Assembly (NCBI GenBank): GCA_965200265.1
Contig: OZ241357.1
Coordinates: 1,731,003 to 1,795,002, forward strand
Length of the DNA: 64,000 bases
DNA from: Alphaproteobacteria bacterium
GTDB taxonomy: Bacteria; Pseudomonadota; Alphaproteobacteria; UBA2966
Reading direction: 5' to 3'
The notes beneath the pieces are model-generated. The model was not told the DNA's origin. It did not search any database and was given only the letters and a program-made list of their open reading frames with translations. Made by a program: the position numbers and the translations under genes. This document shows positions 3,001 through 34,980 of the stretch, piece by piece (the first letter of the stretch is position 1; each line of letters starts with the position of its first letter).

Positions 3001-3491
3001 AGGGTCACGCGCTCCAGCACGTCGCGGTCCGGCTCGCGCCTGTGGGCGCGGCGGTGGACGACGGCCAGCGTCACGGCCGCGCCGTGACGGAACAGGACGA
3101 TGACCGGCATGGCGAAGCCGAGATTGGCGGCGCGCGCCATCTCCGCCAGTTCGGTCCGGCTCCAGGGGCGGTCCTCGAGGTCGGCGGCCACGAACAGGAA
3201 CGACCTGGCGCGCCCGCGGTCGAAGTCCTGGAACAGGCCCGGACGGTCGCCGATCTCCTCGCCGGTGACCTGGAAGACGATGTCGGCCGAGCGCCAGGCG
3301 CCGAGCAGCTTGCGCCGCCGCGCCGTCAGGGGCCTCCTCTCCTCCAGCAGGGCCACGAACGCATCGACGCCGCCCACGTCCTCCGTCCGCTCACTGCTAT
3401 AGCCGAGCGCGCCCAGCAGCGCCGCGGCGCCTTCGCGCGGCGGGCGTCCCGGCGCCAGGCCGGCCAGGGCTTGCTTCACGGAATCGCGCAT
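1..3491 (-). CDS. Eco57I/PglX-family N6-adenine DNA methyltransferase with TaqI_C-like target-recognition domain (type IIG RM-like). 3' end truncated at window start.
   Basis: Reverse-strand ORF from ATG at 3491 (MRDSVKQALAGLAPGRPPREG...). SAM-binding motif I DPAAGSGAF around 1900 and catalytic NPPY around 1190 (motif I before IV). C-terminal region TaqI_C-like (YYGIKTGLNAAFVID...WFEL). No stop codon before position 1, so it is absent from the ORF track. The antisense +ORF 471..4874 is an artefact over this region. Confidence 0.8.
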   Translation of the reverse strand, partial: MRDSVKQALAGLAPGRPPREGAAALLGALGYSSERTEDVGGVDAFVALLEERRPLTARRRKLLGAWRSADIVFQVTGEEIGDRPGLFQDFDRGRARSFLFVAADLEDRPWSRTELAEMARAANLGFAMPVIVLFRHGAAVTLAVVHRRAHRREPDRDVLERVTLIKDVRAADPHRAHVDVLANLALPRLIEAHGVRDFDDLHAAWERTLDIEELNRRFYRELFAWFERAAKACRFPDDGAGEGSTERHVIRLITRLLFVWFMKEKGLIPEALFEDGFARAALKGYALDGTDYYRAVLQNLFFATLNTEVDRRAFSGRNPGGHRDFARYRYRDLLSDPDGFVETLKAVPFVNGGLFDCLDDFAGKQEGGRRIDAFTDNPAQGKGLEVPARLFLDPERGLFPLFRRYKFTVEENTPLDREVALDPELLGRAFENLLAAYNPETRETARKATGSYYTPRAVVDYMVREALAEALAECASPTVAGGDFWRARLLYLLDWESARADAGDFFEPEEAASLVRAIAGLRVLDPAAGSGAFPMGVLQTLTLALRRLDPDNALWEAFQKERAKARAGAAFDGGDRDAREDELREINDTFERYRQSDFGRKLYLIQNGIYGVDVQPIACQIAKLRFFVSLAIEQEPDREAPNLGIKPLPNLETRFVAADALIGLGVEEAQGTLGNDAVKAIEDRLRDVRERYFNAGARETKRRLREEDERLRAELARELENLGFGHDAAEAVARWDPYDQNARAEWFDPEYMFGAPGGFDVVIGNPPYIRGEKIAGKARLAAAFGAFHRGAADVYTYFFRKGADLLADGGTLCFIASNKFMRADYGRPLREFLKREAPPLAILDFGRTGAFDATVRPLVLLARKGGGHGEFRAATVRGVDGAAGLGAFMDENGFPMKVADLPDSGWTLAAPELLKLRARIEAAGTPLREYLTEKIYYGIKTGLNAAFVIDADTRAALLDEDPNGADLIKPWLRGRDVRRWRADWRGLYVIFTRRGTNIGDYPAIERHLSRFRADLEPKVKRNDRRGRAPGSYEWFELQTNIAYHEAFARPKIVYPDIGTEMRAVLDREGRLVGNTCYIVPGDDACLLALLNSRLMDFWFRLSMPCLDDPFDGGDMRFFSADMERAPIATPPAKTKRRLATLANHIQTAKETDPNADVATQEAE

Positions 3492-3537
3492 CGGATCGGG
3501 GGCGGAGTGTACCGACCGGCGGCGGCCGCGGTCCATC

Positions 3538-3618
3538 CTGGCCGGTGGCCGGTGGCCAGTGGCCAGTTGCCGGCACCTGCCGGCACCGATCACCGGCAAC
3601 CGGCAACCGTCCACGGCG
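3538..3618. repeat. REP-like hairpin element made of 7-bp repeats (CCGGTGG/CCAGTGG ... CCACCGG/CCACTGG) around a CCGGCACCGATCACCGG centre
   Basis: Read directly in the sequence. Same family as the copies at 8664, 26314 and 19589. It lies in the divergent intergenic region between the MTase and rnd. Confidence 0.7.
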
Positions 3619-3695
3619 GGCGCGGGCGGGGGAATCCCTCTATGCTGCCGCGGCGCCGCGAGGCGTCGACCCGCAACAGGAACGGCGATCCGGTC

Positions 3696-4874
3696 ATGGC
3701 CGCGAACCTGGTGAGCAACACCCCGGAACTGATCTCCGCCTGCCGGCGGCTCCGCGCCGCCGACTATGTCGCGGTCGATACCGAATTCATCCGCGACAAC
3801 ACCTACTGGCCCCGGCTCTGCCTCGTGCAGGTCGCCGGCGAGGCCGGGGCGCTCGCGATCGACCCGCTCGGCGCCGACCTCGACCTGAAGCCCTTTCTCG
3901 AGCTGCTGACGGACGAGAGCGTGCTCAAGGTGTTCCACGCCGCGCGCCAGGACGTCGAGATCTTCCACTTGCTGGGGGCCATGCCGGCGCCGCTCTTCGA
4001 TACGCAACTCGCCGCGATGGTCTGCGGTTTCGGCGACGCCGCGGGATACGAGACCCTCGTCAAGCGCCTGCTCGGCCATGCCGTCGACAAGTCGTCCCGG
4101 CTTTCCGACTGGTCCCGCCGCCCCCTGAGCGAACGGCAGATCCGATACGCCCTCGACGACGTGGTCCATCTTCGCGGCGTCTACGCCGAGCTCGCCCGGC
4201 GGCTGCGGGACTCGGGACGCGAACGATGGCTCGCCGAGGAACTCGCCCTCCTCACCGACCCGGAGACCTACGCCAACCCGCCGGAAGAGGCCTGGCGGCG
4301 GATCAGGAGCCGGAGCGCCAAGCCGCGCCACATGGCCGTCCTGCGGGAGCTCGCGGCCTGGCGCGAGCGCGCGGCGCAAGCGCGGGACCGCCCGCGAAAC
4401 CGCGTGCTCCGCGACGAGGCCCTGGCGGAAATCGCGGCGCATCCGCCGAGGAGCGCGGCCGACCTGAAGCGGATGCGCGGCCTCCCGAAGGGCCTGCCGA
4501 CCCGGGCCGACGGCGAAACGATCGCGCGCATCGTGGCGGACGTCATGGCGCTGCCGGAAGGAGACCTTCCCCGGCCGGAGGCCCGGTCGCGCCCGAACAA
4601 GGGCAAGGCGCCGCTCGTCGAACTGCTCAAGGTGCTCCTCAAGGCGAAATGCGAGGAACACGGCGTGGCCCCGAAGCTGGTGGCGACGGGCGACGACCTC
4701 GAACGCATCGCGGCCGGCGACAAGCACGGGATCCCGTCGCTGACGGGATGGCGCCGCGGGCTTTTCGGCGAGGACGCGCTGCGGCTGACGCGGGGCGAGG
4801 TCGCGCTGACGGCCGATTCGCGCGGCATCCGGCTGATCGGCGCGGCCCCGCCGGACGGCGGCGGCCCGGCATGA
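3696..4874 (+). CDS. rnd: Ribonuclease D (3'-5' exonuclease plus HRDC domain)
   Basis: MAANLVSNTPELISACRRLRAADYVAVDTEFIRDNTYWPRLCLVQVA... is a DEDDy exonuclease motif region, with an HRDC-like C-terminus. The ATG at 3696 is the C-terminal third of track ORF 471..4874. Confidence 0.9.
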   Translation: MAANLVSNTPELISACRRLRAADYVAVDTEFIRDNTYWPRLCLVQVAGEAGALAIDPLGADLDLKPFLELLTDESVLKVFHAARQDVEIFHLLGAMPAPLFDTQLAAMVCGFGDAAGYETLVKRLLGHAVDKSSRLSDWSRRPLSERQIRYALDDVVHLRGVYAELARRLRDSGRERWLAEELALLTDPETYANPPEEAWRRIRSRSAKPRHMAVLRELAAWRERAAQARDRPRNRVLRDEALAEIAAHPPRSAADLKRMRGLPKGLPTRADGETIARIVADVMALPEGDLPRPEARSRPNKGKAPLVELLKVLLKAKCEEHGVAPKLVATGDDLERIAAGDKHGIPSLTGWRRGLFGEDALRLTRGEVALTADSRGIRLIGAAPPDGGGPA

Positions 4875-4898: not shown

Positions 4899-6434
4899 CT
4901 ACGCGCCGGCCTCGATCCGGCGCCGCGGCGCCAGATTCAGGCATCGCGCGACGGACGCGAGCCGCCTGTCGACGAGTTCGCTGTAAAGGCAGGAGTCCTC
5001 GGGGCGCATGTGGAGCACCGCCTCGCCGGCGGCCCGCTCCAGCCGGGTGCGCGCGAGAACGCCGGGAGCGCCGCCGGAGAGCGTGAGCCCGAGACGGAGC
5101 GCAACCCCGACGAGCTTCGCCCGTTCGGCCGTCGCCAGGTCGACGAGGGTTCGCGCGGGCTCCGTGACCGGCGCGTCGCCGGCGCCGTGATGCCGCGCGT
5201 GAACGGCCAGCGCGACGAACGCGCGCCCGGCGTGATCTATCCCGACGACGGGCGCCCGCAACACCTCCTCGAAGGCCTGCGCCGCGCGGTAGCCGGGGTG
5301 CGCGCGCCAGGCGACGTCGGACAGCAGACAGGCCGCCAGGCGCAACCGGCGGTCTTCCGGGCCTTCCTCCCCGAACAGGGGCGCCATCCACGCCGCCAGT
5401 TCGTCGCCCGTATCCCCGAACCGCGAGGCGCGCGCCGCGAACGCCCGGCACCGGTCGATCAGCGGGTCCGCGGCCCGGACCTCCTCCGGCAGGCGCTCGT
5501 GCAGCAGGCCCTCGCGGAGCCCGCCGGCCAGGAACATGACCCGTCCGGGCCGCAGGCGGCGCAGGACCCGGGAGAGGACGGCGGCGGCGGCGGGGAGCGA
5601 CTCCAGCCGGCGCTGGTTCACGCCCTCGATTCTCGCCAGGGAGTCGGCGCCGAGGCCGGAGATCAGGTCCGCCAGGGCGGCCGCCTCCTCCCGCGCGATC
5701 TCGTACTGGTGGACGATACGCAGCGGATAGTCGCGCCGCGCCATGTGGATGCGCGCCAGCGAGCGCCACGCGCCGCCGACGGCGTAGAAATCCTTCTTCC
5801 GCGCCTTCCCGAGCCAGGCCACCTTGTCGAGGGCGCGGTCGGCGGCGGCGATGCGCTTGCCGGGCGCGAGACCGGTCAGGCGCAGCGCGCCCAGAGGCAG
5901 CGTCACGCCGTCCCCCGCGGCGCCCGACTCCAGCCTCACCAGTTCGAGGCTGCCGCCCCCCAGGTCGCCCATGACGCCATCGGCGCGGGAGAGCGCCGAC
6001 GTGGCGCCCAGGGCCGACAGGCGCGCCTCCTCCGCCCCGGACAGGACGCGCACCTCCAGACCGCAGGCGTCGCGCGCGCGGGCGACGAACGCCGGCCCGT
6101 CGGCCGCCTCGCGCACGGCCGCGGTCGCCACCGCCTCGGGGACGCCGGCGCCGAGCTCCCGCGATAGGGCGACGAACCGCCCGATCGTGGAAAGGGCGAG
6201 GTCGACGCCGCCCGCGTGCAGCGCGCCGGTCTCGGCGAGGTCGCGGCCGATGCCGCACAGGACGCGCTCGTTGAAGACCGGCAGGGGCGCGCGCACCAGG
6301 CCTTCGAAGACGACCAGCCGGACGGAGTTCGACCCGACGTCGATGACGGCCCGCCGCCGCCGCGCGCCGGCGATGCCGGATCGCGGGTGGCGGACGCGGG
6401 CCTCGGGCGCCGGGTCAATCGCCGTCGAGGACAA
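4899..6434 (-). CDS. ppx: Exopolyphosphatase (Ppx/GppA family)
   Basis: N-terminal [16 protein letters not shown] Ppx/GppA signature, about 511 aa. The start may be an internal codon; the gene overlaps the ppk 3' end by 20 nt (operon). Confidence 0.85.
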
Positions 6435-8663: not shown

Positions 8664-8763
8664 CGCCGGTGGCCGGTTGCCGGTGGCCGGTGGCCGGTTG
8701 CCAGTGGCCGGTGGCCAGTTGCCAGTGGCCGGCACCGATCACCGGTCACCGGCCACCGGCCAC
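8664..8763. repeat. REP-like 7-mer-array hairpin element
   Basis: ...gccggtggccggttgccggtggccggtggccggttgccagtggccggtggccagttgccagtggccggcaccgatcaccggtcaccggccaccggccactg. Divergent intergenic region between ppk and the FAD monooxygenase. Confidence 0.7.
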
Positions 8764-8887
8764 TGATAACAAGGCCGCGATGCCGGCGGGACGGAGTTTG
8801 ACCCCGAACGGCCGGCCGCATATTACGGCGGGCACGCCGGGCGCGCGCCGCGTCCGGCCGCCGCCGAAACCGATCCGGACGAGGGCG

Positions 8888-9982
8888 ATGCCCCTTTCCC
8901 GTCACGCCGAAATCGCCGGCGCCGGATTCGCCGGCCTGACCGCGGCCGCGGCGCTGGCCCGGCGCGGGTGGTCGGTGCGCGTGCACGAGAAAGGCCCCGA
9001 GGTTCGCGCGTTCGGCGCCGGGATCTGGATCTGGACGAACGGCTGGCGCGTCCTCAAGGCGGTAGGCGCCTACGCGCGGGCGCGCGAGGACGGCTACGAA
9101 AGCCCCTCGATCGAGAGATACGACCACAACGGCAGGCTACTCATGCCGCCGGTCCGGTTCGCCGACCACGGCGCCCGGATGATCGCCGTCGTCCGGCAGA
9201 AGCTGATCGAGGCCCTGCTCGAGACGTGCCTCGAGGCGGGCGTCGACGTCGTCACGGATTCGGAGGTGTCGGGCGCCTCCGAGGACGGCGAACTGAAAAC
9301 CGCCGCCGGCGGGACGTTTCCCGCGGACCTCGTGATCGGCGCCGACGGCGTCAACTCCGCCGTCCGCGATTCGCTGAAGCTGACCCGGCGCCGCAACCGC
9401 CTCGCCTACGGCGGCTCCCGGCTGCTCATCCCGCGCACCGGGGAAGAGATGGCGGACGCGACGGACCGGGTCCTGACCTACGTCAACGGGGAAAGAAGGC
9501 TGCTGTACACGCCCTGCGGGCGGACGCTGACCTATCTCTGCTTCACCGTCCGCCCCGACGACGCGGAGGGCCGCGCCGTTCCGGTCAGAAAGAAGGCGTG
9601 GATCGAGTCGTTCCCGATGCTGGAACACGTCCTGGAGCGCGTGGGGACCGACGGCCGCTGGGACCGCTACGAGGTGATACGGCTCAAGCGCTGGACGCGC
9701 GGGCGGGTCGCCATCGTCGGCGACGCGGCTCACGCCATGGCGCCCTCGCTCGGGCAGGGCGGCGGGTGCGCGATGATGAACGCCCTGTCCCTGGCCGCCG
9801 CCGCCGGAGACGCGGCCGACGTTCCCGGCGCCCTCGCGGCGTGGGAGGAGCGGGAGCGGCCGCTGACCGAACGGGCGCAGCACGTCTCCTCGATGTTTTC
9901 GGGCCAGCGGACGGACTGGCGGCGGCGCGGCATATTCGAAACGGCCCGTCACCGGCCGACGGGCGCCGAGGGCATCGACTGA
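8888..9982 (+). CDS. FAD-dependent aromatic-ring monooxygenase (class A flavoprotein hydroxylase, salicylate/3-hydroxybenzoate hydroxylase-like)
   Basis: HAEIAGAGFAGLTAAAALARRGWSVRVHE (dinucleotide-binding GxGxxG), DLVIGADGVNSAVR, and the GDAAHAMAPSLGQGGGCAMMNA motif. Paralogue of 16442..17644. Confidence 0.85.
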   Translation: MPLSRHAEIAGAGFAGLTAAAALARRGWSVRVHEKGPEVRAFGAGIWIWTNGWRVLKAVGAYARAREDGYESPSIERYDHNGRLLMPPVRFADHGARMIAVVRQKLIEALLETCLEAGVDVVTDSEVSGASEDGELKTAAGGTFPADLVIGADGVNSAVRDSLKLTRRRNRLAYGGSRLLIPRTGEEMADATDRVLTYVNGERRLLYTPCGRTLTYLCFTVRPDDAEGRAVPVRKKAWIESFPMLEHVLERVGTDGRWDRYEVIRLKRWTRGRVAIVGDAAHAMAPSLGQGGGCAMMNALSLAAAAGDAADVPGALAAWEERERPLTERAQHVSSMFSGQRTDWRRRGIFETARHRPTGAEGID

Positions 9983-10022
9983 GCGCCCGTCCCGGAATAC
10001 GCCGTCCCGGCGGGGAACGCGC

Positions 10023-11472
10023 TCACTCGGCGGCGCGGGCGAAGCCTTTCCCGGCGCCGCGCTTCGTCTTCGCCTTCCCGGCCGTCGCCTTCCTGACCAT
10101 CCATTCCGGCTTGCGCGTGGCCTCGGTGCGGACGAACTCCTGCGTCGCCGTGCGCGGATCGGACCAGATTCTCTGCGGCTTTTCCCAGCGGTGGATGCGA
10201 GGCTGCGGCAGCGGAGTCGTGGTATCCACGATCTCGCCGTCCTTCATGACGACGTCGAGACGCTCCTTGTCCTGAAGGACCGTGATGTCGGCCAACGGAT
10301 CGCCGTCGACCACCAGCACGTCGGCGTACTTCCCCTCCTCCAGGGTGCCGATCCTGTCCTCCATGCCGAGCGCGAACGCGGCGTTCCTGGTGCCGGTCTG
10401 GATGGCCTCCATGGCGCTCATGCCGAGCACGTCCTGCATGATCTCGAGTTCGCGGGCGTGCCACTCGCCGTAGGGCACGCTGCTCTGGCCCGAGTCGGAC
10501 CCGGCCATCATCGTCACGCCGGCCCGGTGGGCGCGGGACAGGTTCCTGTGGGCGGCGTCCAGCTCCCGCTTGAGGCCCTCCAGGATCGGCGCGGGACACC
10601 CGAGATCGGGACCCCACTCGACGACGTTGGCGAGCAGGACCAGCGTCGGGTTGATGGGGGTTCCGGTCTCCAGGAAGGCGTCGACGTCCTCCTCCTCGAT
10701 GTACGAGGCGTGAATGATCCAGTCGAACCCCGCCTCGACGGCATCGCGGGCCGCCCGCCGGCCGCGCGCGTGGATGGTGCAGCGCTTGCCGAGAAGGTGG
10801 GTGATCTCCGACACGGCCTTGAGATCGTCGAGCGTCAGGCTGCCGCCCATCCCGCCTTCGCTGCGCAGCACGTCGCCGTCGCCCGAGACCTTGATGACGT
10901 CGACGCTGTCCCGGACCTGCCGGCGCACCTCCTTCACCAGTTCGTCGCGGGTGTTGCACATCACCGAGAACGCGGAAACGGGATGCTCGACCCACGTCGG
11001 GAACACGCTGCCGATGCCGTTGTAGGTCGTGAGGTACTGGGACGCGACCTTCATGCGGGGACCCTCGATCATGCCCGCGTTCACCGCGTCGCGCAGGGCC
11101 GTGGCCACCCGCCAGGTGCCGCCGGGGTCGACCAGGCTGGTGACTCCGGCGCGCAGCACCTTGCGGATGTTGAGCGCGCCGCGCAGGGCCCTGTACTCGC
11201 CCGAGGCGTAGAGGTTGAGCTCCTCGGCCGACGTGACGTCGCCATACGACGTGTGGACGTGCACGTCGATCATGCCCGGCATGACGGTCTTTCCCGTCGC
11301 GTCGATCGTCCGGCAGGCGTTTCCGCACACCTTGGCGGCGTGCGCCTTCACGGCCTCCTCCCTGCCGATCCTGGCGATGCGGCCGTCCTCGATGAACAGG
11401 GCCGTCTTCTTCTTCGGCTTGGAACCGGTCGCATCGAGGACAGATCCGCCGGTGATGAGATAGCGCGTCATG
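10023..11472 (-). CDS. Amidohydrolase-family metal-dependent hydrolase (imidazolonepropionase / prolidase-like fold)
   Basis: MTRYLITGGSVLDATG...MPGMIDVHVH (metal-binding HxH), ...IHASY..., GSDSGQSSVPYGEWHARELE. The start ATG at 11472 was chosen over the track's 11702. The C-terminus is Lys/Arg-rich. Confidence 0.75.
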
Positions 11473-11643
11473 TCACGGGTCCTTCCGTCAATTGCGGCGC
11501 CGGCGGGCGCAACCCGGCGGCGCGGCGTGTTGAACGAACCGGAGGACGGATAGTATACAATCGGAACCGCCGGACGAAACGCCGGCGCGGACGCGGGCCG
11601 GACTCCCCGCGCCGCATTGTTCGAGGGGAAACGGGAGGGCGCG

Positions 11644-12057
11644 ATGCCGGGCGACGGGAAGGTGACGATCGAACTGATGGAAGAGATCAACGCGGCGTTC
11701 AACAGCCGCGATGCGGACCGCGTCGCGTCCTATTTCGCGGAAGACGGCGTCTTCGCCACCGCCCGCGGACCCGACCCCTGGGGCCACCGCGTACAGGGCC
11801 GCGACAACATCCGCGACTTCGTGGCCAGGCGGTTCGAGGTGGTGCCCGACATGAAATGGGAGCACGACTACAAGTACGTGACCGAAAATCGGGCGGTCAC
11901 CGTATGGACCGTCACCGGCAAGAGCGCCGGGGGAGAGACGTTCAACTACCGGGGCTGCGACCTGTACGACTTCAAGGACGGCAAGATCACCTACAAGGAC
12001 ACGTTCTGGAAGATCGTCGACCCCGACGACCTGGGCGGGCTGCCGGCTTCGGAGTAG
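11644..12057 (+). CDS. SnoaL-like / NTF2-fold protein (ketosteroid-isomerase-like)
   Basis: [38 protein letters not shown]... is the typical SnoaL_2 pattern. RBS GGGAGG. Confidence 0.6.
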
Positions 12058-12139
12058 CGGAGTCCGGGCGCCGGTCCCGGCCCCGCGGGATCATGCCTCC
12101 GCCGGCGGGGCGAGCGGGCGGCCCTCCGCGCCCCGGACG

Positions 12140-13405
12140 ATGCGCCCCGATGCTCCCCGGTCGACCGCGCCGGAAAGGCGGCCCGTGCCCGTAACGGTCC
12201 GCGCCGAGCGCTTGTCGAAGGTGTTCGGCGATTCGCCCGGCGCCGCGCTGGACATGCTCGGCGGCGGCGCGTCGAAGGACGAGATACTGCGGGAGACGGG
12301 CAACGTCGTCGCGGTCTCCGAGGCCGGCTTCGACATCGAAGAGGGCGAGATCTTCATGGTCATGGGTTTGTCGGGGTCCGGCAAATCGACGCTCGTCCGC
12401 TGTCTCAACCGCCTCATCGAACCCACCGCCGGCGCCGTGCTCATCGACGGCGAGAACATCCTCGCCGCCGACGAGGGCCGCGTGCGGGAGCTGAGGCGGA
12501 CGAAGATGTCGATGGTGTTCCAGCACTTCGCCCTGTTCCCCCACAAGTCCGTCAGGGAAAACGCGGAGTTCGGGCTCAAGATCCGGGGCGCCGCGCCCGC
12601 CGAGCGGGGCGCGGCGGCGCTGGAGACCCTGCGCCTCGTCGGCCTGGAGGACTGGGCGGAGCACTACCCCGCCAGCCTGAGCGGCGGGATGCAGCAACGG
12701 GTCGGCCTCGCGCGGGCGCTGGCCACGGACCCCGGCATCCTGCTGATGGACGAGGCGTTCAGCGCCCTGGACCCCCTCATCCGGCGGGACATGCAGGACG
12801 AACTGCTCGACCTTCAGCGCAAGGTCCGCAAGACCATCGTCTTCATCACGCACGACTTCCACGAGGCGCTGAAGCTGGGCGACCGCATCGCCATGATGCG
12901 CGACGGAAAGATCGTCCAGATCGGGCCGCCCGAGGAGATCGTCTCCCGGCCCGCCGACGACTACGTCGCCGACTTCACCCGCGACGTCGACCGGGGCCGC
13001 GTCTTCTCCTGCGCCTCGATCATGCGGCAGGTGCCGCCGCTGCGGCTCGGCGAGGACACGCTCGATGACGCCGTGACGCGGATGCGGCGGGAATCCCGCG
13101 ACGCGCTCCACGCGGTCGACGGCGACGGCAGGCCGCGGGGGCTCGCCCGCGCCGGCGCGGTCGCCAGGTCCGTCCAGGCCGGCGAAACGGAGCTCGCCGG
13201 CGCGCTGGTGGACGGGTTCCCGACGACCCCGGAGACCGCGAGGATCGCCGACCTCTACGCGATGTGCGGCGACGGCCTCCCGATCGCGGTCGTGGACTCC
13301 CGCGGCGCCTACGCGGGCGTGCTCATGCCGCTCGACGTCCTGACCAAGCTCACGCCGGACGCGCCGGACGCGCCGGACCCCGGCGCCGCGCGGCCGCGGC
13401 CATGA
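12140..13405 (+). CDS. proV: Glycine betaine/proline-type ABC transporter ATP-binding protein with tandem CBS domains (ProV/OpuAA family)
   Basis: Walker [25 protein letters not shown] signature, Walker [13 protein letters not shown]-terminal CBS region. Confidence 0.85.
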
Positions 13406-14379
13406 ACGACCCTTCCGATCTCTTCCTGCTGCCGCTGGAGGACTGGATACAGACGGCCGTGGAATGGGTGGTCGCCAACTGGCGCCCGGTCTTCCAGGCA
13501 ATCCGCTGGCCCATCTCCTACACGCTCGACGGGCTGGAGGCGGCGCTCCAGGGAATCCCCTACCTCGTGGTCGTGGCCGCGATGTTCGCCGTCGCGTGGC
13601 GCGCCGCCGGCTGGCGCACCGGCGCCTTCAGCCTCGCCGCCATGCTGTTCATCGGGTTCCTGGGCCTGTGGGACAAGGCGATGACGACGCTCGCCATCGT
13701 CTTCACGGCGGTCGTGTTCTGCGTGATCGTCGGCCTGCCGCTCGGAATCCTGGCGGGCAGAAGCGACCGGTTCTGGTCGTGGCTGAGGCCGGTCCTGGAC
13801 GTGATGCAGACCACGCCGTCCTTCGTCTACCTCGTTCCCGTGGTGATGCTGTTCGGCATCGGCACCGTTCCGGGCGTCATCGCCACGATCATATTCTCCC
13901 TGCCGCCGCTCATCCGCCTGACCAACCTGGGGCTCCGGCAGGTGCGGACCGAGGTGGTGGAGGCCGGCCTGGCGTTCGGGTCGACCCGCTGGCAGCTGCT
14001 GAAGGAGGTGCAGTTCCCCCTGGCCCTCCCCACCATCATGGCGGGGCTCAACCAGACGCTTCTGCTGGCGATGGTCATGAGCGTCATCGCCGCCATGATC
14101 GGCGCCGAAGGTCTGGGACTCACCGTGTTGCGGGGGATCGGCAGGCTCGACGTCGGCCTGGCGGCGATCGGCGGCATCAGCATCGCGCTGCTGGCCATCA
14201 TCCTCGACCGGGTGACCCAGGCGCTGGGCCAGGCGCGGCGGGACGGCCCGCCGATCGAGCGCCGGAGCTGGCTGGCGATGGTGTTCGGCTCGCGTCCGCG
14301 GCCCGGCGAAAGCCCGGCGGCGGGCGGGAGCGACTCCTTCCGGGAGCCCTCCGGGCGGTTCTCCAGGGGCGGGGGGTGA
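13402..14379 (+). CDS. proW: Glycine betaine/proline-type ABC transporter permease (ProW/OpuAB family)
   Basis: Multi-TM protein with the EAA-loop region ([39 protein letters not shown]). ATGA start/stop overlap with proV. Confidence 0.85.
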
Positions 14380-14474
14380 GCGGCTTGACTCGCGAAAGGC
14401 GACTCGCGGACAATCCCCTTTCACGATCACGCACCACGCACACACGATCGCACGTGCGAAACGGGGAGGCGGGA

Positions 14475-15503
14475 ATGAACATCAGCCTGCGCAACGTCGG
14501 CATCGTCGCCGGACTCGCATTGTTCGCCCTGGCGGCGCCGGCGGCGGAATCCGCCGCCGCCGAGAAGTCGGCCAAGCCGGCCCGGGCCACCTGGGACACG
14601 TTCTGGTTCGGCGAACGGATTCTGAAGATCGGCCTGGAGCGCCTCGGCTATACCGTCGCGGAGCCGAAGACGCTCAACAACCCGGCGCGCTATCCCGCCG
14701 TCGCGCAAGGCGACGTCGATTACGAGACGGACGCCGTGATCCCGAACGCCAGCGCCTTCATCGAGAAGGTCAAGGCCGACGTCGAACTGGTCGGGCCGCT
14801 CATGAATCCGGGCTCCATCCAGGGTTATCTGATCGACAGGAAGACGGCGGAGGCCCACGGCATAACGAGCCTCGAGGACCTCAAGAAAGACGACGTCCGG
14901 AAGCTCTTCGACGGCGACGGCGACGGCAAGGCGGACCTGATCGGCTGCAATCCCGGCTGGAACTGCGAGAAGTTCATCAACCACCACATCGGCGCCTACG
15001 GGCTGGCCGACCACGTGAAGCACGTGCAGGGCGAGTACAACGTGCTGGTCGGAGATACGGTCGGCCGGTTGAAGCGCGGGGACTCCGTGCTCCTCTACGC
15101 CTGGTATCCGAACACCGCCACCATCCAGATGACGCCGGGCGAGGACCTGGTCTGGATCACGGTGCCCTACACCGACCTTCCGGACGGCGGCAAGGCCGAC
15201 ACGACGCAGGAGGGGCTGAAGTCCTGCGCCGCCGGCGCCGGGGCGTCGTGCAACCTCGGCTGGGCCGCGACCCAGTACTACGTCGCCGCGAACAGGAAGT
15301 GGCTGGCCGCGAACCCCCAGGCCCGGAAGCTGTTCGAGCTGGTCAAGGTCGGCCTCGAGGACCGGGTGACCCAGAACCTGGCCATGAAGAACGGCGAGGA
15401 CTCCGAAGCGGACCTGACGCGCCACGCGGAGCAGTGGATCGCCAACAACAAGGCCGCGTTCGACGGCTGGGTGGAAGAGGCCCGCAAGGCCGGCAGCTAC
15501 TAG
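14475..15503 (+). CDS. proX: Quaternary-amine (betaine-type) ABC transporter substrate-binding protein (ProX/OpuAC family)
   Basis: Signal peptide MNISLRNVGIVAGLALFALAAPAAESA, then an OpuAC-like fold (GCNPGWNCEKFINHHI, YAWYPNTA). Confidence 0.8.
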   Translation: MNISLRNVGIVAGLALFALAAPAAESAAAEKSAKPARATWDTFWFGERILKIGLERLGYTVAEPKTLNNPARYPAVAQGDVDYETDAVIPNASAFIEKVKADVELVGPLMNPGSIQGYLIDRKTAEAHGITSLEDLKKDDVRKLFDGDGDGKADLIGCNPGWNCEKFINHHIGAYGLADHVKHVQGEYNVLVGDTVGRLKRGDSVLLYAWYPNTATIQMTPGEDLVWITVPYTDLPDGGKADTTQEGLKSCAAGAGASCNLGWAATQYYVAANRKWLAANPQARKLFELVKVGLEDRVTQNLAMKNGEDSEADLTRHAEQWIANNKAAFDGWVEEARKAGSY

Positions 15504-15506
15504 CGG

Positions 15507-15540
15507 GCAGCGGGTAGCGGGCCGTTTCGCGCCCGCAACC
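15507..15540 (+). terminator. GC-rich hairpin downstream of proX (GCGGGCcgtttcGCGCCCGC)
   Basis: Inverted repeat immediately after the proX stop codon. There is no T-tract, as is common in high-GC genomes. Confidence 0.35.
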
Positions 15541-15598
15541 CCGTCCGTGGCGGCCGCCTCCCGCGCCGGGACGCCGCAGGCCGAAGGACGTTCGCTTC

Positions 15599-16411
15599 AT
15601 GCCGCTCGAGGAACGGGACATCGAATTCGAGGGGACGACCGTTCACGTCTGGGAGGGCGGAAGCGGCTTCCCGGTCCTGATGCTGCACGGATCGGGGGCC
15701 GGCGCCTCGATCTTCTCCAACTTCGAGCGTGTTCTCGAGCCTCTCGGCGAACGCTACCGGATACTGGCCGCGGACCTCGTCGGCTTCGGCCAATCGGGGC
15801 TGAAGCCGGAGATGCCGTACTTCGACGTCGAGATGTGGCTGCGTCAGGGGCTGCGCCTGGCGGAACTGCTTCCCGACGGGCCGATCGGCGTCATCGGGCA
15901 CTCGCTCTCCGGGGCGTTCGCGCTCAAGCTCGCCGCCCGAACCGGCCGGATCGCCAAGGTCATGGCCACCGGCACCATGGGGGCCAGCTTCGAGGTCCCC
16001 GAGGCGCGCAACCGCGCGTGGACCTACCCGGAAACGGACGAGGCCATCCGCGGCGTCGCCGAGCACATGGTCGTCGACAAGTCGATCGTCACCGACCGTC
16101 ACGTCGCCCACCGCAAGGCGATCCTGACCCGGCCCGGCTATCGCGAGTACTTCAGGGCGATGTTCGAGAAGGACCGGCAGCATTTCGTCGACGCCTCGGC
16201 CGTGACCCCGGACGAACTCTCCCGGATCGGCTGCGACGTCCTGTTCGTGCACGGCCGGCAGGACGCGTCGTTCCCGCCGGACAAGACGACGCTGGTCCTC
16301 GCCCGGGCGATCCCGACTTCCGACGTCGTCCTGCTGTCCCGGTGCGGGCACAACGTCGCCTACGAACAGCCCGCGAAATTCCTGCGCGCCTGCGAGATGC
16401 TCTTTGGATAG
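15599..16411 (+). CDS. Alpha/beta-fold hydrolase (meta-cleavage-product hydrolase / MhpC-BphD-like)
   Basis: Nucleophile elbow GHSLSG, LMLHGSGAGAS oxyanion region, C-terminal catalytic His (CGHNVAYEQP). Confidence 0.8.
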   Translation: MPLEERDIEFEGTTVHVWEGGSGFPVLMLHGSGAGASIFSNFERVLEPLGERYRILAADLVGFGQSGLKPEMPYFDVEMWLRQGLRLAELLPDGPIGVIGHSLSGAFALKLAARTGRIAKVMATGTMGASFEVPEARNRAWTYPETDEAIRGVAEHMVVDKSIVTDRHVAHRKAILTRPGYREYFRAMFEKDRQHFVDASAVTPDELSRIGCDVLFVHGRQDASFPPDKTTLVLARAIPTSDVVLLSRCGHNVAYEQPAKFLRACEMLFG

Positions 16412-16441
16412 GCCGTTTCCCGAGGCGCCGGGCGCCGGCGC

Positions 16442-17644
16442 ATGACCCGGCACGCGGAGATCGCCGGCGCCGGCTTCTCCGGCCTCGCGATGGCCGCCGC
16501 GCTGGCCCGGCGCGGGTGGTCGGTGCGCGTCCACGAGCGGTCTGCCGAGGTGCGGGCGTTCGGCGCCGGGATCTGGACGTGGGAGAACGGCGTCCGCGCG
16601 CTCGCCAGCATCGAGGCCGCCGACGACGCCTTCGCCGACTGCATCCCGCCGCCCCGATACCTCGAACGGGACGCCGGGCAGCGCATCATCCGGTCGCTGC
16701 CCTTCCCGCCGCCACGCAGCGCCAGCGGCGTCCGCATGTTCTGCATCACGCGGCAGCAGCTCCTCATGGCCATTCACGGCGCGGCGATGCGGGCGGGGGT
16801 GGAGGTCGCCGTCAATTCCGAGGTCGTTTCCGCGCGGCCCGAAGGCGCACTCGAAACCGCCGACGGAAGGACCTTGCGGGCGGACCTCGTCGTCGGCGCG
16901 GACGGGGTCAATTCCCGGGTCCGCGATTCCCTCGGCCTGCTGCGAAGCCGCCGCCGGCACGCGGACGGGGGGATCCGGGTGCTGGTGGCGCACGAGGGAG
17001 GCTACGGCGACACCGAGGAAGGGAGCCTGCTGCGCTCGTGGTGGAGCGGCCGGCGGCGGTTGCTGTACACGCCGTGCACGAGCGACGTCTTCTACATGTG
17101 CTTCACGGGACGGGCGCGGGACGGCCAAGCGTCGCGGGTTCCCCTGCACAAGGAGTCGTGGATCCGCCATTTCCCGTTCATGGAATCGATGATCGACCGC
17201 GTGGGCGAGGAGCAGCGCTACGACGTCTTCGAAACGGTGAAGTCCAAGCGCTGGCGCGCCGGCCGGGCGGCGATCATCGGCGACGCCGGCCACGCCATGG
17301 TTCCGGGGCTCGGCCAGGGGTGCGGCATGGCCATCTGCAACGCCCTGTCGCTGGCCGGCCATCTGGCCGATCACCGGGACGTCGAGCGCGCGCTCGACGA
17401 ATGGGAAACGCGCTGGCGCCCGATCACGGAGCACGCCCAGCTCTGGTCCCGGATCAGCTGGCCGCTGACGCAGATCCCGGTCGGCGTCGCCCGCTGGGCC
17501 TTCCGGACTCCGGCGGTTCACGACTGGGTGGCGGCCCAGCGCAGCAAGCCTTCCCGCGTCATGCCCCACGGCAGCGAGAACGACCCGCGCTGGCTCCCGC
17601 GGGACGCGGCCGCGCCGATCGCAACGCCGGGCGGGAAGCCATGA
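16442..17644 (+). CDS. FAD-dependent aromatic-ring monooxygenase, paralogue of 8888..9982
   Basis: MTRHAEIAGAGFSGLAMAAALARRGWSVRVHE..., DLVVGADGVNSRVR, GDAGHAMVPGLGQGCGMAICNA. The N-terminal 30 aa are nearly identical to the paralogue. Confidence 0.85.
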   Translation: MTRHAEIAGAGFSGLAMAAALARRGWSVRVHERSAEVRAFGAGIWTWENGVRALASIEAADDAFADCIPPPRYLERDAGQRIIRSLPFPPPRSASGVRMFCITRQQLLMAIHGAAMRAGVEVAVNSEVVSARPEGALETADGRTLRADLVVGADGVNSRVRDSLGLLRSRRRHADGGIRVLVAHEGGYGDTEEGSLLRSWWSGRRRLLYTPCTSDVFYMCFTGRARDGQASRVPLHKESWIRHFPFMESMIDRVGEEQRYDVFETVKSKRWRAGRAAIIGDAGHAMVPGLGQGCGMAICNALSLAGHLADHRDVERALDEWETRWRPITEHAQLWSRISWPLTQIPVGVARWAFRTPAVHDWVAAQRSKPSRVMPHGSENDPRWLPRDAAAPIATPGGKP

Positions 17645-19191
17645 AGAAAACGCCGCTGTTCGACATCCATGTGGCGTCGGCGAGACGCATGGTCAACCTC
17701 AAGGGCTTCGCCCGCCCCGTCGAGTACGCGGGCCACGCCGAGGAGCACCGGGCCATCCGGGAACGGGTCAGCCTGTGCGACGTGTCCCACATGGGCGAGA
17801 TCGAAATCAGCGGTCCGGACGCGCCGGCGCTGGTGGACAGGCTGATCACGAACGACGCCGCCCGCCTCGACGCGGGCCAGGCCCTCTACACCGTCATGTG
17901 CGATGAACGCGGCCACGTCATCGACGATCTGGTCTGCCTCCGCCTGGCGGAAGACCGGTTCCTCTGGGTCGTCAACGTCACCAGGACCGACGAGGACCAT
18001 CGCTGGGTCCTGAAGCACGCCCAGGGCCTCGATACGCACGTCCGCGACCGGTCGGCGGAACTCGCCCTCCTCGCCCTCCAGGGGCCGTATTCGAGCGAGG
18101 TCCTGCAAAAGGTCGTCGCGGCCGACCTTTCGGGAATGGCCTACTACCGGCTGGCGGAAACCACCGTCACGACCGACGAGACGGAGGCCCCCTGCATCGT
18201 CAGCCGCACCGGATACACCGGCGAACGGGGATACGAGATCTGCGTTTCCCGGGACTTCGCCCCGTCCGTGTGGCGGGCGCTGATGCGCGCCGGGCGTCCC
18301 CTGGGCATCGCGCCGCACGGGGTCGCCGCCCGCGAGAGCGCGCGCACCGAAGCCGGCTACCTGCTCAACGGCAACGACATCGACGACCGGACCTACCCCC
18401 ACGAGGTCGGTCTCGGCTGGGTGGTGAAGCCGCACAAGGACTTCATCGGGCGCGACGCGCTGGCCGCCGTCGCCGAAGGGGGAGCGCCGCGGAAGCTGGT
18501 GGGGCTGGAGATGGCGGGACGGGTCACGATCCGCCACGGATACCCCGTCTTCAGGGACGGCGAGCGGATCGGGCGGGTCACGAGCGGCCCGCTGTCTCCC
18601 GACCTGGTGGGCGGCGCCGCGAGCCTGGGGCTGGGATTGGTCGCCAGCGCCCACGCCGGGGACGGCGGCGTCCTCCAGATCGGCGTGCGCGGCGCGCGCC
18701 ACGATGCGCGAATCGTCCCCTACCCCTTCCGGGAACGGCGGGTGCGCGACGACGCCAGGGTGGACACCCTGTCTCCCTGCGGGCTGCGCTACGGCGAGGA
18801 TCATTTGTGGGTCGGGGCGGAGTCCGACGGCCGGGCCACGATCGGGCTCACCGACTTCGGACAGCGGTATCTGGGGGAAGCGCTGTCGGCGGTGCTGCCG
18901 GTGCCGGGCGACCGCATCGTGCGGGGATCGCCGTTCGGCTGGCTCGACGCCTACCGCAGGCCCTTCGACCTGATCGCGCCGGTGTCGGGGACGGTCGTGG
19001 CGGTGAACGCGGCCGCGGTCGAACGACCGGGCGACGTCAACCGCTATCCCTACGCGCGCGACGGCCTGATCCGGATCGAACCCGACGATGCCGGGGAGAT
19101 CCCGGCGCTCGCCGGGTTCGCCGCCTACACCGAGACCACGCGCCGGCTCGAGCGCTACGACTCCTGGTCCCGGGACCTCAGGCTGACCTGA
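17641..19191 (+). CDS. gcvT: Aminomethyltransferase (GcvT-type, folate-dependent) fused to a C-terminal GcvH-like domain that lacks the lipoyl-lysine
   Basis: The N-terminal ~360 aa align closely with GcvT (TPLFDIHVASARRMVNLKGF...CDVSHMGEIEISG..., GYTGERGYEI). The C-terminal ~150 aa align with the genome's own GcvH (LRYGEDHLWV..GLTDFGQRYLGE..), but ESVKAAS is replaced by LDAYRRP, so there is no lipoylatable Lys. Start overlaps the preceding stop (ATGA). Confidence 0.8.
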   Translation: MKKTPLFDIHVASARRMVNLKGFARPVEYAGHAEEHRAIRERVSLCDVSHMGEIEISGPDAPALVDRLITNDAARLDAGQALYTVMCDERGHVIDDLVCLRLAEDRFLWVVNVTRTDEDHRWVLKHAQGLDTHVRDRSAELALLALQGPYSSEVLQKVVAADLSGMAYYRLAETTVTTDETEAPCIVSRTGYTGERGYEICVSRDFAPSVWRALMRAGRPLGIAPHGVAARESARTEAGYLLNGNDIDDRTYPHEVGLGWVVKPHKDFIGRDALAAVAEGGAPRKLVGLEMAGRVTIRHGYPVFRDGERIGRVTSGPLSPDLVGGAASLGLGLVASAHAGDGGVLQIGVRGARHDARIVPYPFRERRVRDDARVDTLSPCGLRYGEDHLWVGAESDGRATIGLTDFGQRYLGEALSAVLPVPGDRIVRGSPFGWLDAYRRPFDLIAPVSGTVVAVNAAAVERPGDVNRYPYARDGLIRIEPDDAGEIPALAGFAAYTETTRRLERYDSWSRDLRLT

Positions 19192-19248
19192 ACGTCCATC
19201 TGTTCTCCCCTCGGGGCGCCACTCGGACCTTCGCGAGACACGGCCGAG

Positions 19249-19760
19249 GGTGTGCAAGGTGTGCAATTCGACGCACCGGGTCCGCCCTCCATACGGTGTG
19301 CAAGGTGTGCCATTCCGGGCGCGATCCGGACCTCCGCGGAATGCGCCCGACGGTGTGCAAGCTGTGCAATTCGACGCGCCGGGTCCGCCCTCCATACGGT
19401 GTGCAAGCTGTGCCATTCCGGGTACGGCCCGGACCTCCGCAGGATGCGCCCCACGGTGTGCAAGGTGTGCAAGTCGGCGCGCCGGGCACACCCCCCATAC
19501 GGTGTGCAATGTGTGCCATTCCGGGCGCGGCCCGGACTTCCGCGAGATGCGCCCGACGGTGTGCAAGGTGTGCAAGTCGGCGCACCGTGCCGCGACTGGC
19601 GACTGGCGACTGGCGACTGGCCACCGGCGACCGACCTTAGTGTGCAACGTGTGCCATTCCGGGCGCGGCCCAGACTTCCGCGGAATGCGCCCCCACGGTG
19701 TGCAAGGTGTGCAAGTCGGCGCGCCGCGTCCCGCTCGCCGTTCCCGGCGCCGGGCGGGTT
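19249..19760. repeat. Composite tandem repeat array (about 104-bp dimer unit, roughly 4.5 copies). Each half-unit begins GGTGTGCAAGGTGTGC(A/C)A. Unit B carries the hairpin CATTCCG...CGGAATG.
   Basis: Read directly. Half-units start near 19249, 19295, 19352, 19399, 19455, 19501, 19558, 19639 and 19698. It sits in the convergent intergenic region between the gcvT fusion (+) and the SDR gene (-). Confidence 0.8.
19589..19636. repeat. GCGACTG heptamer microsatellite / REP-like insertion inside the tandem-repeat array
   Basis: gccgcgactggcgactggcgactggcgactggccaccggcgaccgacc shows the same 7-mer logic as the other REP-like elements. Confidence 0.6.
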
Positions 19761-19781: not shown

Positions 19782-20561
19782 TCAGAACAGCGCCGGATTC
19801 AGCCCGCCGTCCAGCAGAATGCTCTGGGCCGTGATGTAGCCCGCCCTGTCGCCGCACAGGAACGCGCAGGCTTCGCCGAATTCCTCCGGCGCGCCGAACC
19901 GGCCGACCGGGATGCGCGCGATCCGGCGCTCCGCGGCCGCTTCCGGACTCACCCCCTCGCGCCTGGCGACGGCCTCGGTCGTGGCGCGAAGGCGATCGGT
20001 AAGGATCTCTCCGGGAAGCAGGTTGTTGATCGTCACGTTGTGCCGGGCGACTTCACGGGCGATGGTGCCGACCGCGCCCGTGAGGCCCGCCCTCGCGCCG
20101 TTCGACAGCACCAGGATGTCGACGGGCGCCTTCACGGAACCGGACGTGACGTTGACGATGCGGCCCCATCGGCGCGCGATCATGCCGTCGACCGTCGCCT
20201 GGATCAGGGCGATGGCCGTCAGCATGTTGGCGTCCAGCGCCGCGATCCAGTCCTCGCGCGTGAAATCCCGAAAGTTGCCGGGCGGCGGACCTCCGGCGTT
20301 GTTGATCAGGATGTCCGGCTCGGGACACGCGCCCAGCGCCGCCTCGCGCCCTTCCTCGGTCGTGACGTCGCCGACGACGGCCGTGACCTGCGCCGCCGTC
20401 GCGGCCCGGATCTCCGCGGCGGTCGCCTCGACGGTTTCCGGGGTGCGGCCGGTGACGGTCACGTCGACGCCTTCCCGCGCCAGCGAGAACGCGCAGGCCC
20501 TGCCGAGGCCGCGACTCGAGGCGCACACGAGCGCCTTCCTTCCCGCGATACCGAGATCCAT
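19782..20561 (-). CDS. SDR-family oxidoreductase (3-oxoacyl-ACP reductase-like)
   Basis: N-terminal GRKALVCASSRGLGRA (TGxxxGxG), the NNAG motif, and the classical SDR active-site region. Confidence 0.85.
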   Translation of the reverse strand: MDLGIAGRKALVCASSRGLGRACAFSLAREGVDVTVTGRTPETVEATAAEIRAATAAQVTAVVGDVTTEEGREAALGACPEPDILINNAGGPPPGNFRDFTREDWIAALDANMLTAIALIQATVDGMIARRWGRIVNVTSGSVKAPVDILVLSNGARAGLTGAVGTIAREVARHNVTINNLLPGEILTDRLRATTEAVARREGVSPEAAAERRIARIPVGRFGAPEEFGEACAFLCGDRAGYITAQSILLDGGLNPALF

Positions 20562-26411: not shown

Positions 26412-29309
<2,898 letters not shown>

Positions 29310-29338
29310 CTTCCTTCTCCCTCGCAGGCGAACGCGCG

Positions 29339-30140: not shown

Positions 30141-30228
30141 TCGTCCGGCTGTAGCCGCGATGATAGGCGGCGCCCAGCCCCTGTCAACCGCCGGACGCGG
30201 CGGCCGGGGCCACCCTCGTCACCGGCCG

Positions 30229-31421: not shown

Positions 31422-31556
31422 GGCGGCCTCGCGGGCCGTTGATTCGAGACGGATATTTCCCCTGATTTCGAGAGCCTCCCCGTTCCTCGCGTTTCACGCT
31501 TTCCGCGGGATCGGCCGCGAGCGCGCAAGCCGTTGATCCGACGCCCGGTTTCGCGA
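31422..31556 (-). promoter_or_regulatory. CRISPR leader
   Basis: 135-bp non-coding, comparatively AT-richer segment between the csb2 stop and the first repeat (...gattcgagacggatatttcccctgatttcgagag...). Confidence 0.6.
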
Positions 31557-33008: not shown

Positions 33009-33013
33009 CGGCC

Positions 33014-34973: not shown

Positions 34974-34980
34974 CGCGCCC

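Follow-up and report, generated by a model that had tools for sequence, protein, structure and literature searches.

Trigonelline, homarine and other aromatic betaines are abundant among the metabolites of plants and of the sea. Bacterial routes for their degradation have been found only recently, and both known ones use two-component flavin oxygenases. For trigonelline, opening of the ring reportedly leads to N-methylformamido-type products, which are then hydrolysed. In vitamin B6 degradation, a pyridine ring is oxygenated and opened by 2-methyl-3-hydroxypyridine-5-carboxylate oxygenase (MHPCO). The homarine cluster of Cobetia (homABCDER) encodes a peptidase and an aldehyde dehydrogenase beside its two-component flavin oxygenase HomAB, and it includes a predicted glycine betaine transporter (PMC13236597). 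The present analysis concerns a gene cluster at positions 8888-17644 of a 64-kb stretch of DNA (hereafter the window) from an uncultured alphaproteobacterium (contig OZ241357.1, positions 1,731,003 to 1,795,002). The cluster encodes two class A flavin monooxygenases (MO1 and MO2), a metallo-amidohydrolase, a SnoaL-like protein, an ATP-binding cassette (ABC) importer of the ProVWX type and a serine α/β hydrolase, and it is followed directly by gcvTH, the gene for a GcvT-GcvH fusion protein (GcvT-H).

The cluster is uncharacterised, ordinary-looking and built of known enzyme families; what sets it apart is that MHPCO-type oxygenases are paired with a re-specified ProX binding protein. The widespread family of GcvT-pseudo-H fusions beside it is a second, incidental point of interest. 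With about even confidence, the cluster is read as importing a zwitterionic N-heteroaromatic compound (of the hydroxypyridine or pyridinium-betaine type), opening its ring oxidatively and hydrolysing the products. We infer the substrate class, the order of the reactions and the ring opening itself from the observed gene content, families, synteny, purifying selection, pocket substitutions in ProX and a conserved promoter motif. The original prediction, that this is a catabolic cluster with GcvT-H as its demethylase, holds in part: the MHPCO-type monooxygenases, the ProX variant and the shared promoter are best read as a dedicated cluster for the catabolism of a heteroaromatic compound that is probably zwitterionic, but GcvT-H is not the demethylase of the pathway.

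How does the locus compare with the described clusters? On this reading it resembles the tgn cluster of Acinetobacter baylyi and the hom cluster in being a catabolic cluster for pyridinium-carboxylate betaines. The enzymes are of other families, however. The tgn cluster and the hom cluster use the two-component pairs TgnAB and HomAB, a peptidase and an aldehyde dehydrogenase, whereas in the present locus the monooxygenases are single-component and of class A, the amidohydrolase is of the Amidohydro_1 family and a dehydrogenase is absent. Pfam and NCBIfam scans of 8888-19191 found no domains of a two-component flavin oxygenase pair or of an aldehyde dehydrogenase. Comparison with the trigonelline and homarine clusters gives no match, and identity with the homarine operon is rejected because the gene families differ (PMC13236597).

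Monooxygenases of the MHPCO Family

The structures of Mesorhizobium loti MHPCO (mlr6788; PDB 3ALJ, 3GMB) are the top matches of both monooxygenases, which align with them over almost their full length at 262 bits for MO1 (E 7e-77) and 260 bits for MO2 (E 3e-76). The next PDB match reaches 88 bits for MO1 and 71 bits for MO2, and the next solved families, in that range of 71-88 bits, are tropone monooxygenase, NicC, HpxO and salicylate hydroxylase. Both proteins show the motifs GxGxxG and GDAxH when aligned. In MHPCO numbering, all 43 family members compared have the equivalents of R181, R211 and Y223, and those of C217 and P295 are likewise invariant in the family. Two further positions are each kept in one paralogue only: MO1 has isoleucine for Y82 and keeps Y270, and MO2 keeps Y82 and has phenylalanine for Y270. 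Structural and mutant work on MHPCO reportedly places Y82, R181, R211, Y223 and Y270 in the active site. Outside the FAD-binding N-terminus, identity to MHPCO is about 38%. A literature search on MHPCO for homologues or N-methyl substrates turned up nothing useful.

The nearly identical N-termini of MO1 and MO2 had been read as the trace of a recent duplication. Overall identity between the two is only 51%, with 79% over the first ~53 residues and 46% over the remainder, and the N-terminal level is general in the family: either protein shares 72-79% of this segment with members from other genomes (77-79% with those of loci L005 and L028) and 60-68% with M. loti MHPCO. In a neighbour-joining tree rooted on MHPCO, MO1 falls outside a clade that holds MO2 and all 40-odd homologues from other metagenome-assembled genomes (MAGs). 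These results do not bear out a recent duplication. Judged by alignment and tree, the similar N-termini represent a conserved FAD-binding segment, and MO1 and MO2 are most simply seen as old paralogues of the MHPCO family. Gene conversion at the N-termini was likewise rejected, any two family members being equally identical there.

MO2 homologues at 57-62% identity occur in many alphaproteobacterial MAGs. A plasmid search with MO2 returned only relatives at ~40% identity with generic annotation, and gave no tie to rhizobial trigonelline loci. In many MAGs of Alphaproteobacteria/Rhodospirillales (L007, L009, L011-L020, L023 and L025, at about locus position 8800-12400), two MO2-like genes stand in tandem directly behind an ABC importer of the Dpp/Opp type, and one MAG (CBDHDJ...) has at least four MO2-like copies at separate loci. 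Such tandem and multiple genes are an expansion of the MHPCO family in this group.

A Non-canonical ProX in the Operon

The transporter shares with Escherichia coli ProU its three-gene architecture. ProV and ProX score above the cut-offs of their models (TIGR01186, 396 bits against 327; NF008334, 352 against 215), ProW stays below its own (NF008196, 358 against 439), and ProX matches E. coli ProX (PDB 1R9L) with 216 bits. In E. coli ProX the betaine is contacted by a tryptophan cage of W65, W140 and W188 together with H69; W65 and H69 are both reported to be ligand contacts. Counted on the alignment with the E. coli protein, W65 is replaced by valine and H69 by alanine in the window and in its relatives L004 and L039, while W140, C142 and W188 are kept. 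The V65/A69 (V/A) type comprises the 24 closest of 120 ProX homologues (at or above ~51% identity), and 79 more distant ones have the canonical W/H pair. By these residues the ProX of the cluster is assigned to a non-canonical subfamily that lacks two glycine-betaine contacts; the transporter also differs from ProU in lying inside a catabolic operon. A plasmid search with ProX gave matches at up to ~43% identity, called ProX in annotated records, and like that with MO2 it gave no tie to rhizobial trigonelline loci.

Importers of the V/A type are found elsewhere in a Thiotrichales MAG (three assemblies, L040-L042, 3883-10026) and in L043 (2811-12889). In all of these, ProVWX is encoded directly downstream of a fused Fe-S/Mo hydroxylase (~945 aa) and adjoins a luciferase-like monooxygenase; L043 has in addition a flavin reductase, a 4-OT-type tautomerase, a PcaD-like hydrolase and a LysR regulator. 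These operons may be a further catabolic cluster for aromatic betaines or aldehyde betaines. Three unrelated contexts thus place the V/A subfamily next to genes for oxidoreductases, flavin oxygenases among them, which argues against a purely osmoprotective role. If so, V65/A69 would be a sequence signature for ProU-like transporters that are automatically annotated as glycine betaine systems and probably carry other cargo.

Hydrolases, the SnoaL-like Protein and Recurrence of the Module

The best structural relative of the serine hydrolase is CumD, at 138 bits. Meta-cleavage hydrolases are marked by an asparagine before the nucleophilic serine and a tryptophan after the catalytic histidine. 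The cluster enzyme has the Ser/Asp/His triad in common with CumD, BphD and HsaD, within the motifs GHS and HN, but its subfamily differs at both hallmarks: histidine precedes the serine in 119 of 120 homologues, and asparagine, serine or glycine follows the catalytic histidine, tryptophan in none. All equivalog models for meta-cleavage product (MCP) hydrolases are missed (96 bits against a cut-off of 400; 68 against 462). The earlier assignment as a meta-cleavage-type hydrolase therefore stands for overall similarity and fails at the hallmark residues. The 60 best PDB matches of the protein, down to E=2e-5, do not include AAMS hydrolase, an enzyme of the vitamin B6 pathway.

The amidohydrolase scores 248 bits against NF051886 (cut-off 500). 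Its best PDB match is 9kov ('trum-mut'), at 154 bits, followed by Cc2672-type carboxypeptidases and ochratoxin amidohydrolases at ~135-147 bits. The SnoaL-like protein has weak PDB matches only.

The three proteins recur together. The hydrolase gene adjoins the amidohydrolase gene in L005, L006 and L010, with genes for SnoaL and an MO2-like protein nearby, and the same pair is seen in L037 and L038; SnoaL co-occurs with genes for a monooxygenase, amidohydrolase and hydrolase in L005, L006, L010 and L027. In a Pigmentiphaga MAG the pair is accompanied by RidA, a Rieske oxygenase alpha/beta pair, TctC and an FAH-family enzyme, and in Rhizobium puerariae by a GntR regulator (45% identical to that of L039), an FAH-family gene (53%), an FGase-family gene and an amino-acid ABC system. 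L027 has the amidohydrolase (60% identical), a monooxygenase and SnoaL among three Mo-hydroxylases of the xanthine dehydrogenase family, CoxD/E-like accessory genes, a GntR regulator and an MFS transporter, a classic setting for N-heterocycle degradation. Taken together, these arrangements amount to a lower module of hydrolases that is joined to varying oxygenases and importers. NCBIfam scans of the partner genes in other loci gave no equivalog-level names. In L010 (2937-9131), a DMGDH-like FAD+GcvT protein of 842 aa adjoins the hydrolase-amidohydrolase-SnoaL genes, and an EgtD-like histidine methyltransferase gene lies ~1 kb upstream of the MO2-like gene.

Organization of the Cluster and Its Promoter

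Genes were called from frame profiles of GC content at third codon positions (GC3) with inspection of start codons, and families were assigned by Pfam and NCBIfam scans; the raw lists of open reading frames are rich in spurious frames because the window is ~70% GC. The gene list of the original prediction is confirmed in position and, by GC3 frames, Pfam and NCBIfam, in family (Table 1). L-numbers (L001-L043) denote loci from other genomes or MAGs, and the relatives of the window were found by a search for GcvT-H homologues, an exact look-up of GcvT-H having had no hit.

Table 1. Genes and sites of the cluster, its flanks and the CRISPR-cas region (positions in the window)
Feature	Position	Strand	Family or remark
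ppx	4899-6434	-	
ppk	6415 to about 8652	-	
MO1, class A flavin monooxygenase, MHPCO family, 364 aa	8888-9982	+	Pfam FAD_binding_3 (PF01494)
Amidohydro_1 metallo-amidohydrolase, 482 aa	10023-11471	-	Pfam PF01979
Promoter and putative operator upstream of SnoaL	11530-11561	+	TTGAAC, TATACA, ATAGTATACAAT
SnoaL/NTF2-like small protein, 137 aa	11644-12057	+	Pfam SnoaL_2, SnoaL
ProV-type ABC ATPase	12140 or 12185 (start uncertain) to 13405	+	TIGR01186
ProW-type permease	13402-14379	+	Pfam BPD_transp_1
ProX-type periplasmic binding protein, signal peptide, V65/A69 subfamily	14475-15503	+	Pfam OpuAC, NF008334
Serine α/β hydrolase, MCP-hydrolase-related distinct subfamily	15599-16411	+	
MO2, class A flavin monooxygenase, MHPCO family, 400 aa	16442-17644	+	Pfam PF01494
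GcvT + GcvH-domain fusion, 516 aa	17641-19191	+	GCV_T, GCV_T_C, GCV_H domains
SDR	19782-20561	-	
CRISPR-cas region	30229-31425 and 31557-37605	-	

The genes for SnoaL, ProVWX, the hydrolase and MO2 follow one another on one strand, no more than ~128 nt apart, and proV and proW overlap by 4 nt. The segment 15599-19191 had been described as four tightly spaced genes with start/stop overlaps; the genes number three, with one 30-nt gap and one 4-nt ATGA overlap (between MO2 and gcvTH).

The divergent genes for the amidohydrolase and SnoaL are separated by a spacer of 172 nt. It contains TTGAAC (11530-11535) and, after 17 nt, TATACA, and this promoter is overlapped by the near-palindrome ATAGTATACAAT (11550-11561). 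All 12 positions of this site agree between the window, L003, L004 and the distant relative L039, while the rest of the spacer has diverged. GTATAC has its sole occurrence in the 64 kb here, and the chance expectation for the 12-mer is 0.07. In L039 a gene for a GntR/FCD regulator adjoins the 12-mer, and the GntR gene of L027 has a related site at its start. ATAGTATACAAT is therefore a putative repressor operator overlapping the -10 region, which would govern the genes from SnoaL through ProVWX and the hydrolase to MO2 (transcription running on into gcvTH here) and, perhaps, the amidohydrolase gene on the opposite strand. Consensus scans for promoters and terminators gave counts at chance level.

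The GcvT-GcvH Fusion Is a Core Neighbour

The T part of GcvT-H passes two GcvT models (NF001567, 364 bits against a cut-off of 300; TIGR00528, 301 against 236) and remains far below the cut-offs of the demethylases DmdA (151/410), Tdm (251/1100), DesA (78/800) and LigM (70/580). The H-like part matches PF01597. It differs from GcvH in being joined to GcvT in a single chain of 516 aa and in having arginine for the lipoyl-lysine, within the motif W-x-D-S/T-Y-R-R/K; arginine is found in 118 of 121 family members. Because of this arginine, the H-like domain is not lipoylatable. The family of 516-aa fusions is large and conserved in length, with members in Alphaproteobacteria, Burkholderiales, Methylomirabilota and a Thermanaeromonas species, and a literature search for a description of it found none.

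Does GcvT-H belong to the cluster? In L001, L002 and L034/L035 (GcvT-H identity 88%, 77% and 66%, respectively), gcvTH occupies the same position and the cluster is absent: ppx-ppk lie upstream, and genes for SDR, hda, AI-2E, CDP-OH transferase, DUF2066, purM, purN and ndk downstream. Where the cluster is present, the two are not always contiguous. In L039 the stretch from MO2 to gcvTH holds an FAH-family gene and intergenic gaps, and in L004 the two genes stand 34 nt apart. GcvT-H is therefore a core neighbour gene outside the cluster; it is probably transcribed together with the cluster here, but its link to it is positional only. The FAH gene that follows MO2 in L039 has left no trace in the window, so that the overlap there is secondary, a by-product of deletion. 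The proposal that GcvT-H acts as the tetrahydrofolate (THF)-dependent demethylase of the cluster is not supported, on these grounds: its scores, the synteny in relatives that lack the cluster and the secondary overlap. The case also urges caution, as gene adjacency and a start/stop overlap are poor evidence of pathway membership when the gene has joined the operon through deletion.

About 7 kb from gcvTH, a tandem glycine riboswitch (29934-30144, minus strand) precedes gcvH (29339-29728) and then gcvP (26412-29342). The stand-alone GcvH keeps the ESVKA motif. This riboswitch-gcvH-gcvP operon has no gcvT, which implies a T protein elsewhere. GcvT-H may serve as the housekeeping T protein, or it may be a THF enzyme that works without lipoate.

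Between gcvTH and the SDR gene, at 19211-19733, lies an intergenic tandem array with a period of 103 nt (3.5 copies plus partials; motif GGTGTGCAAGGTGTGCAA / GTGTGCCATTCCGGGCGCGGCCCGGAC). L001, L002 and L004 have only 20-53 bp in its place.

History of the Cluster

The cluster is present in L003 (a 98% relative), in the MAG chromosome L004 (GcvT-H 88%, cluster proteins 87-95% identical) and in L039 (a 70% relative). The gene order in L039 is SDR224 (-), MO1, amidohydrolase (-), GntR/FCD (-), SnoaL, ProVWX, hydrolase, MO2, FAH and GcvT-H; the window has no trace of the regulator gene or the FAH gene. In L002 a monooxygenase pseudogene lies directly upstream of gcvTH, in which ~57 N-terminal and ~75 C-terminal codons of MO2 are joined. 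Because L002 retains this remnant, the cluster is ancestral in the clade and has been deleted from, not inserted beside, the core genes of the relatives that lack it.

All genes of the cluster are under purifying selection. The ratio of nonsynonymous to synonymous substitution rates (dN/dS) is 0.04-0.23 for every one of them, in comparisons of the window with L004 and with L039 (0.14-0.17 for MO1, 0.04-0.11 for the amidohydrolase). For the flanking genes it is 0.12 (ppk) and 0.08 and 0.21 (SDR), the ppk value against L039 being an alignment artefact. Protein identity to L039 is 72-84% for the cluster and 70-84% for the flanks, at comparable dS. The part of our reading that concerns this history, in which 8888-17644 is an accessory cluster passed on vertically in a clade of uncultured Alphaproteobacteria of high GC content, with repeated losses, shares the even confidence of the rest.

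Horizontal acquisition was considered and rejected. GC content is 0.68-0.72 in the region of the cluster and 0.70 in the window, without compositional deviation, the 64-kb window has no tRNA gene, and the borders of the cluster have no extra open reading frames; divergence from L039 equals that of the core flanks, and L002 keeps its remnant. Heptamer arrays are found at both ends, (GCCGGTG)x9.7 at 8665-8732, just beyond the start of ppk, and (GCGACTG)x5.7 at 19592-19631. They are mutually inverted and bracket the cluster together with gcvTH, and the left one marks the point where homology to L001 ends. Insertion as a mobile element between these arrays was rejected as well, since the deletion junctions of L001 and L002 miss the right-hand array and L002 retains part of the monooxygenase gene.

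Proposed Pathway and Alternative Explanations

In the proposed pathway, the ProU-type importer would take up a zwitterionic N-heteroaromatic compound of the hydroxypyridine-carboxylate or pyridinium-betaine type. MO1, MO2 or both would then hydroxylate and open the ring with NAD(P)H and O2, giving a product of the N-acyl enamine type, from which the serine hydrolase and the metallo-amidohydrolase, paired in other genomes, may strip the acyl and amide fragments. The SnoaL-like protein may contribute an isomerisation or dehydration step, and in relatives the FAH-family enzyme could take on C-C or decarboxylation steps, or isomerisation together with SnoaL. Expression would start from the conserved promoter, whose -10 region overlaps an operator of the GntR/FCD type, the cognate regulator gene having presumably been lost from this copy. 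GcvTH would stand at the end of the transcription unit through deletion and not as the demethylase of the pathway. A hydroxylated pyridinium betaine is an attractive candidate substrate because, by chemistry alone, MHPCO-type opening of N-methyl-5-hydroxynicotinate would give MFMS, an intermediate of the trigonelline (tgn) pathway.

Several points weigh against this reading. The enzymes of the cluster are below equivalog cut-offs, and all activities are extrapolated from 33-42% identity. Class A flavin monooxygenases require an activated, already hydroxylated ring, and the cluster has no enzyme that would activate an unhydroxylated pyridinium. A ring of the imidazole type is possible too: the monooxygenases score 113-137 bits against HpxO-like NCBIfam models, and flavin-dependent imidazoleacetate monooxygenases are known, although none with a solved structure is among the PDB matches of MO1 and MO2. 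The module of R. puerariae is without any oxygenase, so that the hydrolase pair need not act on ring-fission products. The MOP-type Mo enzymes beside V/A-type ProX elsewhere could be aldehyde oxidoreductases instead of heterocycle hydroxylases. Finally, the ProX of the cluster passes the NCBI equivalog threshold for ProX, and glycine betaine or proline betaine may be its ligand.

Could ProVWX be an ordinary osmoprotectant uptake system among unrelated genes, the enzymes acting on a non-betaine compound of the hydroxypyridine or vitamin B6 type? The passing scores of ProX (352 against 215) and ProV are in keeping with this, as is the presence of the core enzymes in loci that lack ProVWX (L005, L006, L010) or have other transporters (L007, L037, L038). 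However, the transporter genes are placed between those for SnoaL and the hydrolase, on one strand and behind one conserved promoter/operator, W65V/H69A is conserved and defines a subfamily, and this subfamily is met again by oxidoreductases in unrelated bacteria; osmoprotectant uptake is therefore regarded as unlikely. Still further from the evidence is the model of the original prediction, in which an N-methylated heteroaromatic compound or quaternary amine is degraded and GcvT-H is a THF-dependent N-demethylase. The 4-nt overlap of MO2 and gcvTH with probable co-transcription fits this model, and an H-like domain that cannot be lipoylated may mean that the protein does not act as a classical T protein and could take a free substrate; the DMGDH-like FAD+GcvT enzyme beside the hydrolase-amidohydrolase-SnoaL genes of L010 would be a parallel. 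It is nonetheless quite improbable, given that gcvTH (66-88% identical) holds the same position in L001, L034 and L035, which lack the cluster, that an FAH gene and gaps (L039) or 34 nt (L004) separate it from MO2, that its scores lie above the GcvT cut-offs and far below those of DmdA, Tdm, LigM and DesA, and that the operon of gcvH and gcvP implies a T protein elsewhere.

A cluster for vitamin B6 (pyridoxine) degradation by pathway I, like that of M. loti, would account for MHPCO as top match of both monooxygenases and for an α/β hydrolase gene adjoining MO2; in the M. loti cluster, the gene for AAMS hydrolase is next to that for MHPCO. Against this, identity to MHPCO falls to ~38% outside the N-terminus, the hydrolase is not an orthologue of AAMS hydrolase, which its 60 best PDB matches (E<=2e-5) do not contain, and neither the cluster region nor the other scanned genes of the window include a pyridoxine oxidase, pyridoxal dehydrogenase, lactonase, pyridoxic acid dehydrogenase or decarboxylase gene. 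With a betaine-type importer present in addition, this pathway is very improbable. Tailoring of a secondary metabolite, that is biosynthesis in place of catabolism, is barely credible. SnoaL-family and FAD monooxygenase domains are common in biosynthetic clusters, and MHPCO-like pyridine hydroxylases are reported in karnamicin biosynthesis (PMC9838390), but Pfam and NCBIfam scans found no polyketide synthase, nonribosomal peptide synthetase or other scaffold-forming gene in or beside the cluster. The ABC system is of the importer type with a periplasmic binding protein, housekeeping genes flank the cluster, and its partners elsewhere are catabolic (FAH, Rieske oxygenase, Mo-hydroxylases).

Import and oxidative opening of a zwitterionic N-heteroaromatic thus remain preferred. 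If they are real, the MHPCO-type monooxygenases and the ProX variant point to another substrate or another route than those described. A bolder extension, possible but doubtful, is that the cluster represents a third route for the degradation of N-heteroaromatic betaines and, separately, that GcvT proteins with a pseudo-H domain form a lipoate-independent THF-dependent family and are not classical T proteins. Candidate substrates of such a route are a hydroxylated trigonelline- or homarine-like compound and 3-hydroxypyridinium. The route would consist of single-component ring-opening flavoenzymes of the MHPCO type together with a re-specified binding protein of the ProX family, distinct from the two-component Tgn and Hom systems, and it would be widespread in uncultured marine or host-associated Alphaproteobacteria.

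Other Features of the Window

A CRISPR array of ~15 repeats (unit CCTTCAACGTCACCTCGGCGCTGGGCCGAGGGATAC, period ~72 nt) lies directly upstream of the glycine riboswitch. It is adjoined by cas genes of the GSU0053/GSU0054 type and a Cas3-like helicase gene, a system resembling types I-U/I-G. A large open reading frame (3-4727, minus strand) that runs off the end of the window has Eco57I-type methylase, N6_Mtase and TaqI_C specificity domains, by which it is classed as a fused restriction-modification enzyme of the type IIG/IIL kind. On the minus strand at 56373-57559 and 57924-63992, runs of a 21-nt tandem repeat are found inside three small open reading frames. The same region (56373-63992) has an open reading frame of 2022 aa with internal repeats of 360 nt and a strong negative GC skew, which probably encodes a repetitive surface or secreted protein.

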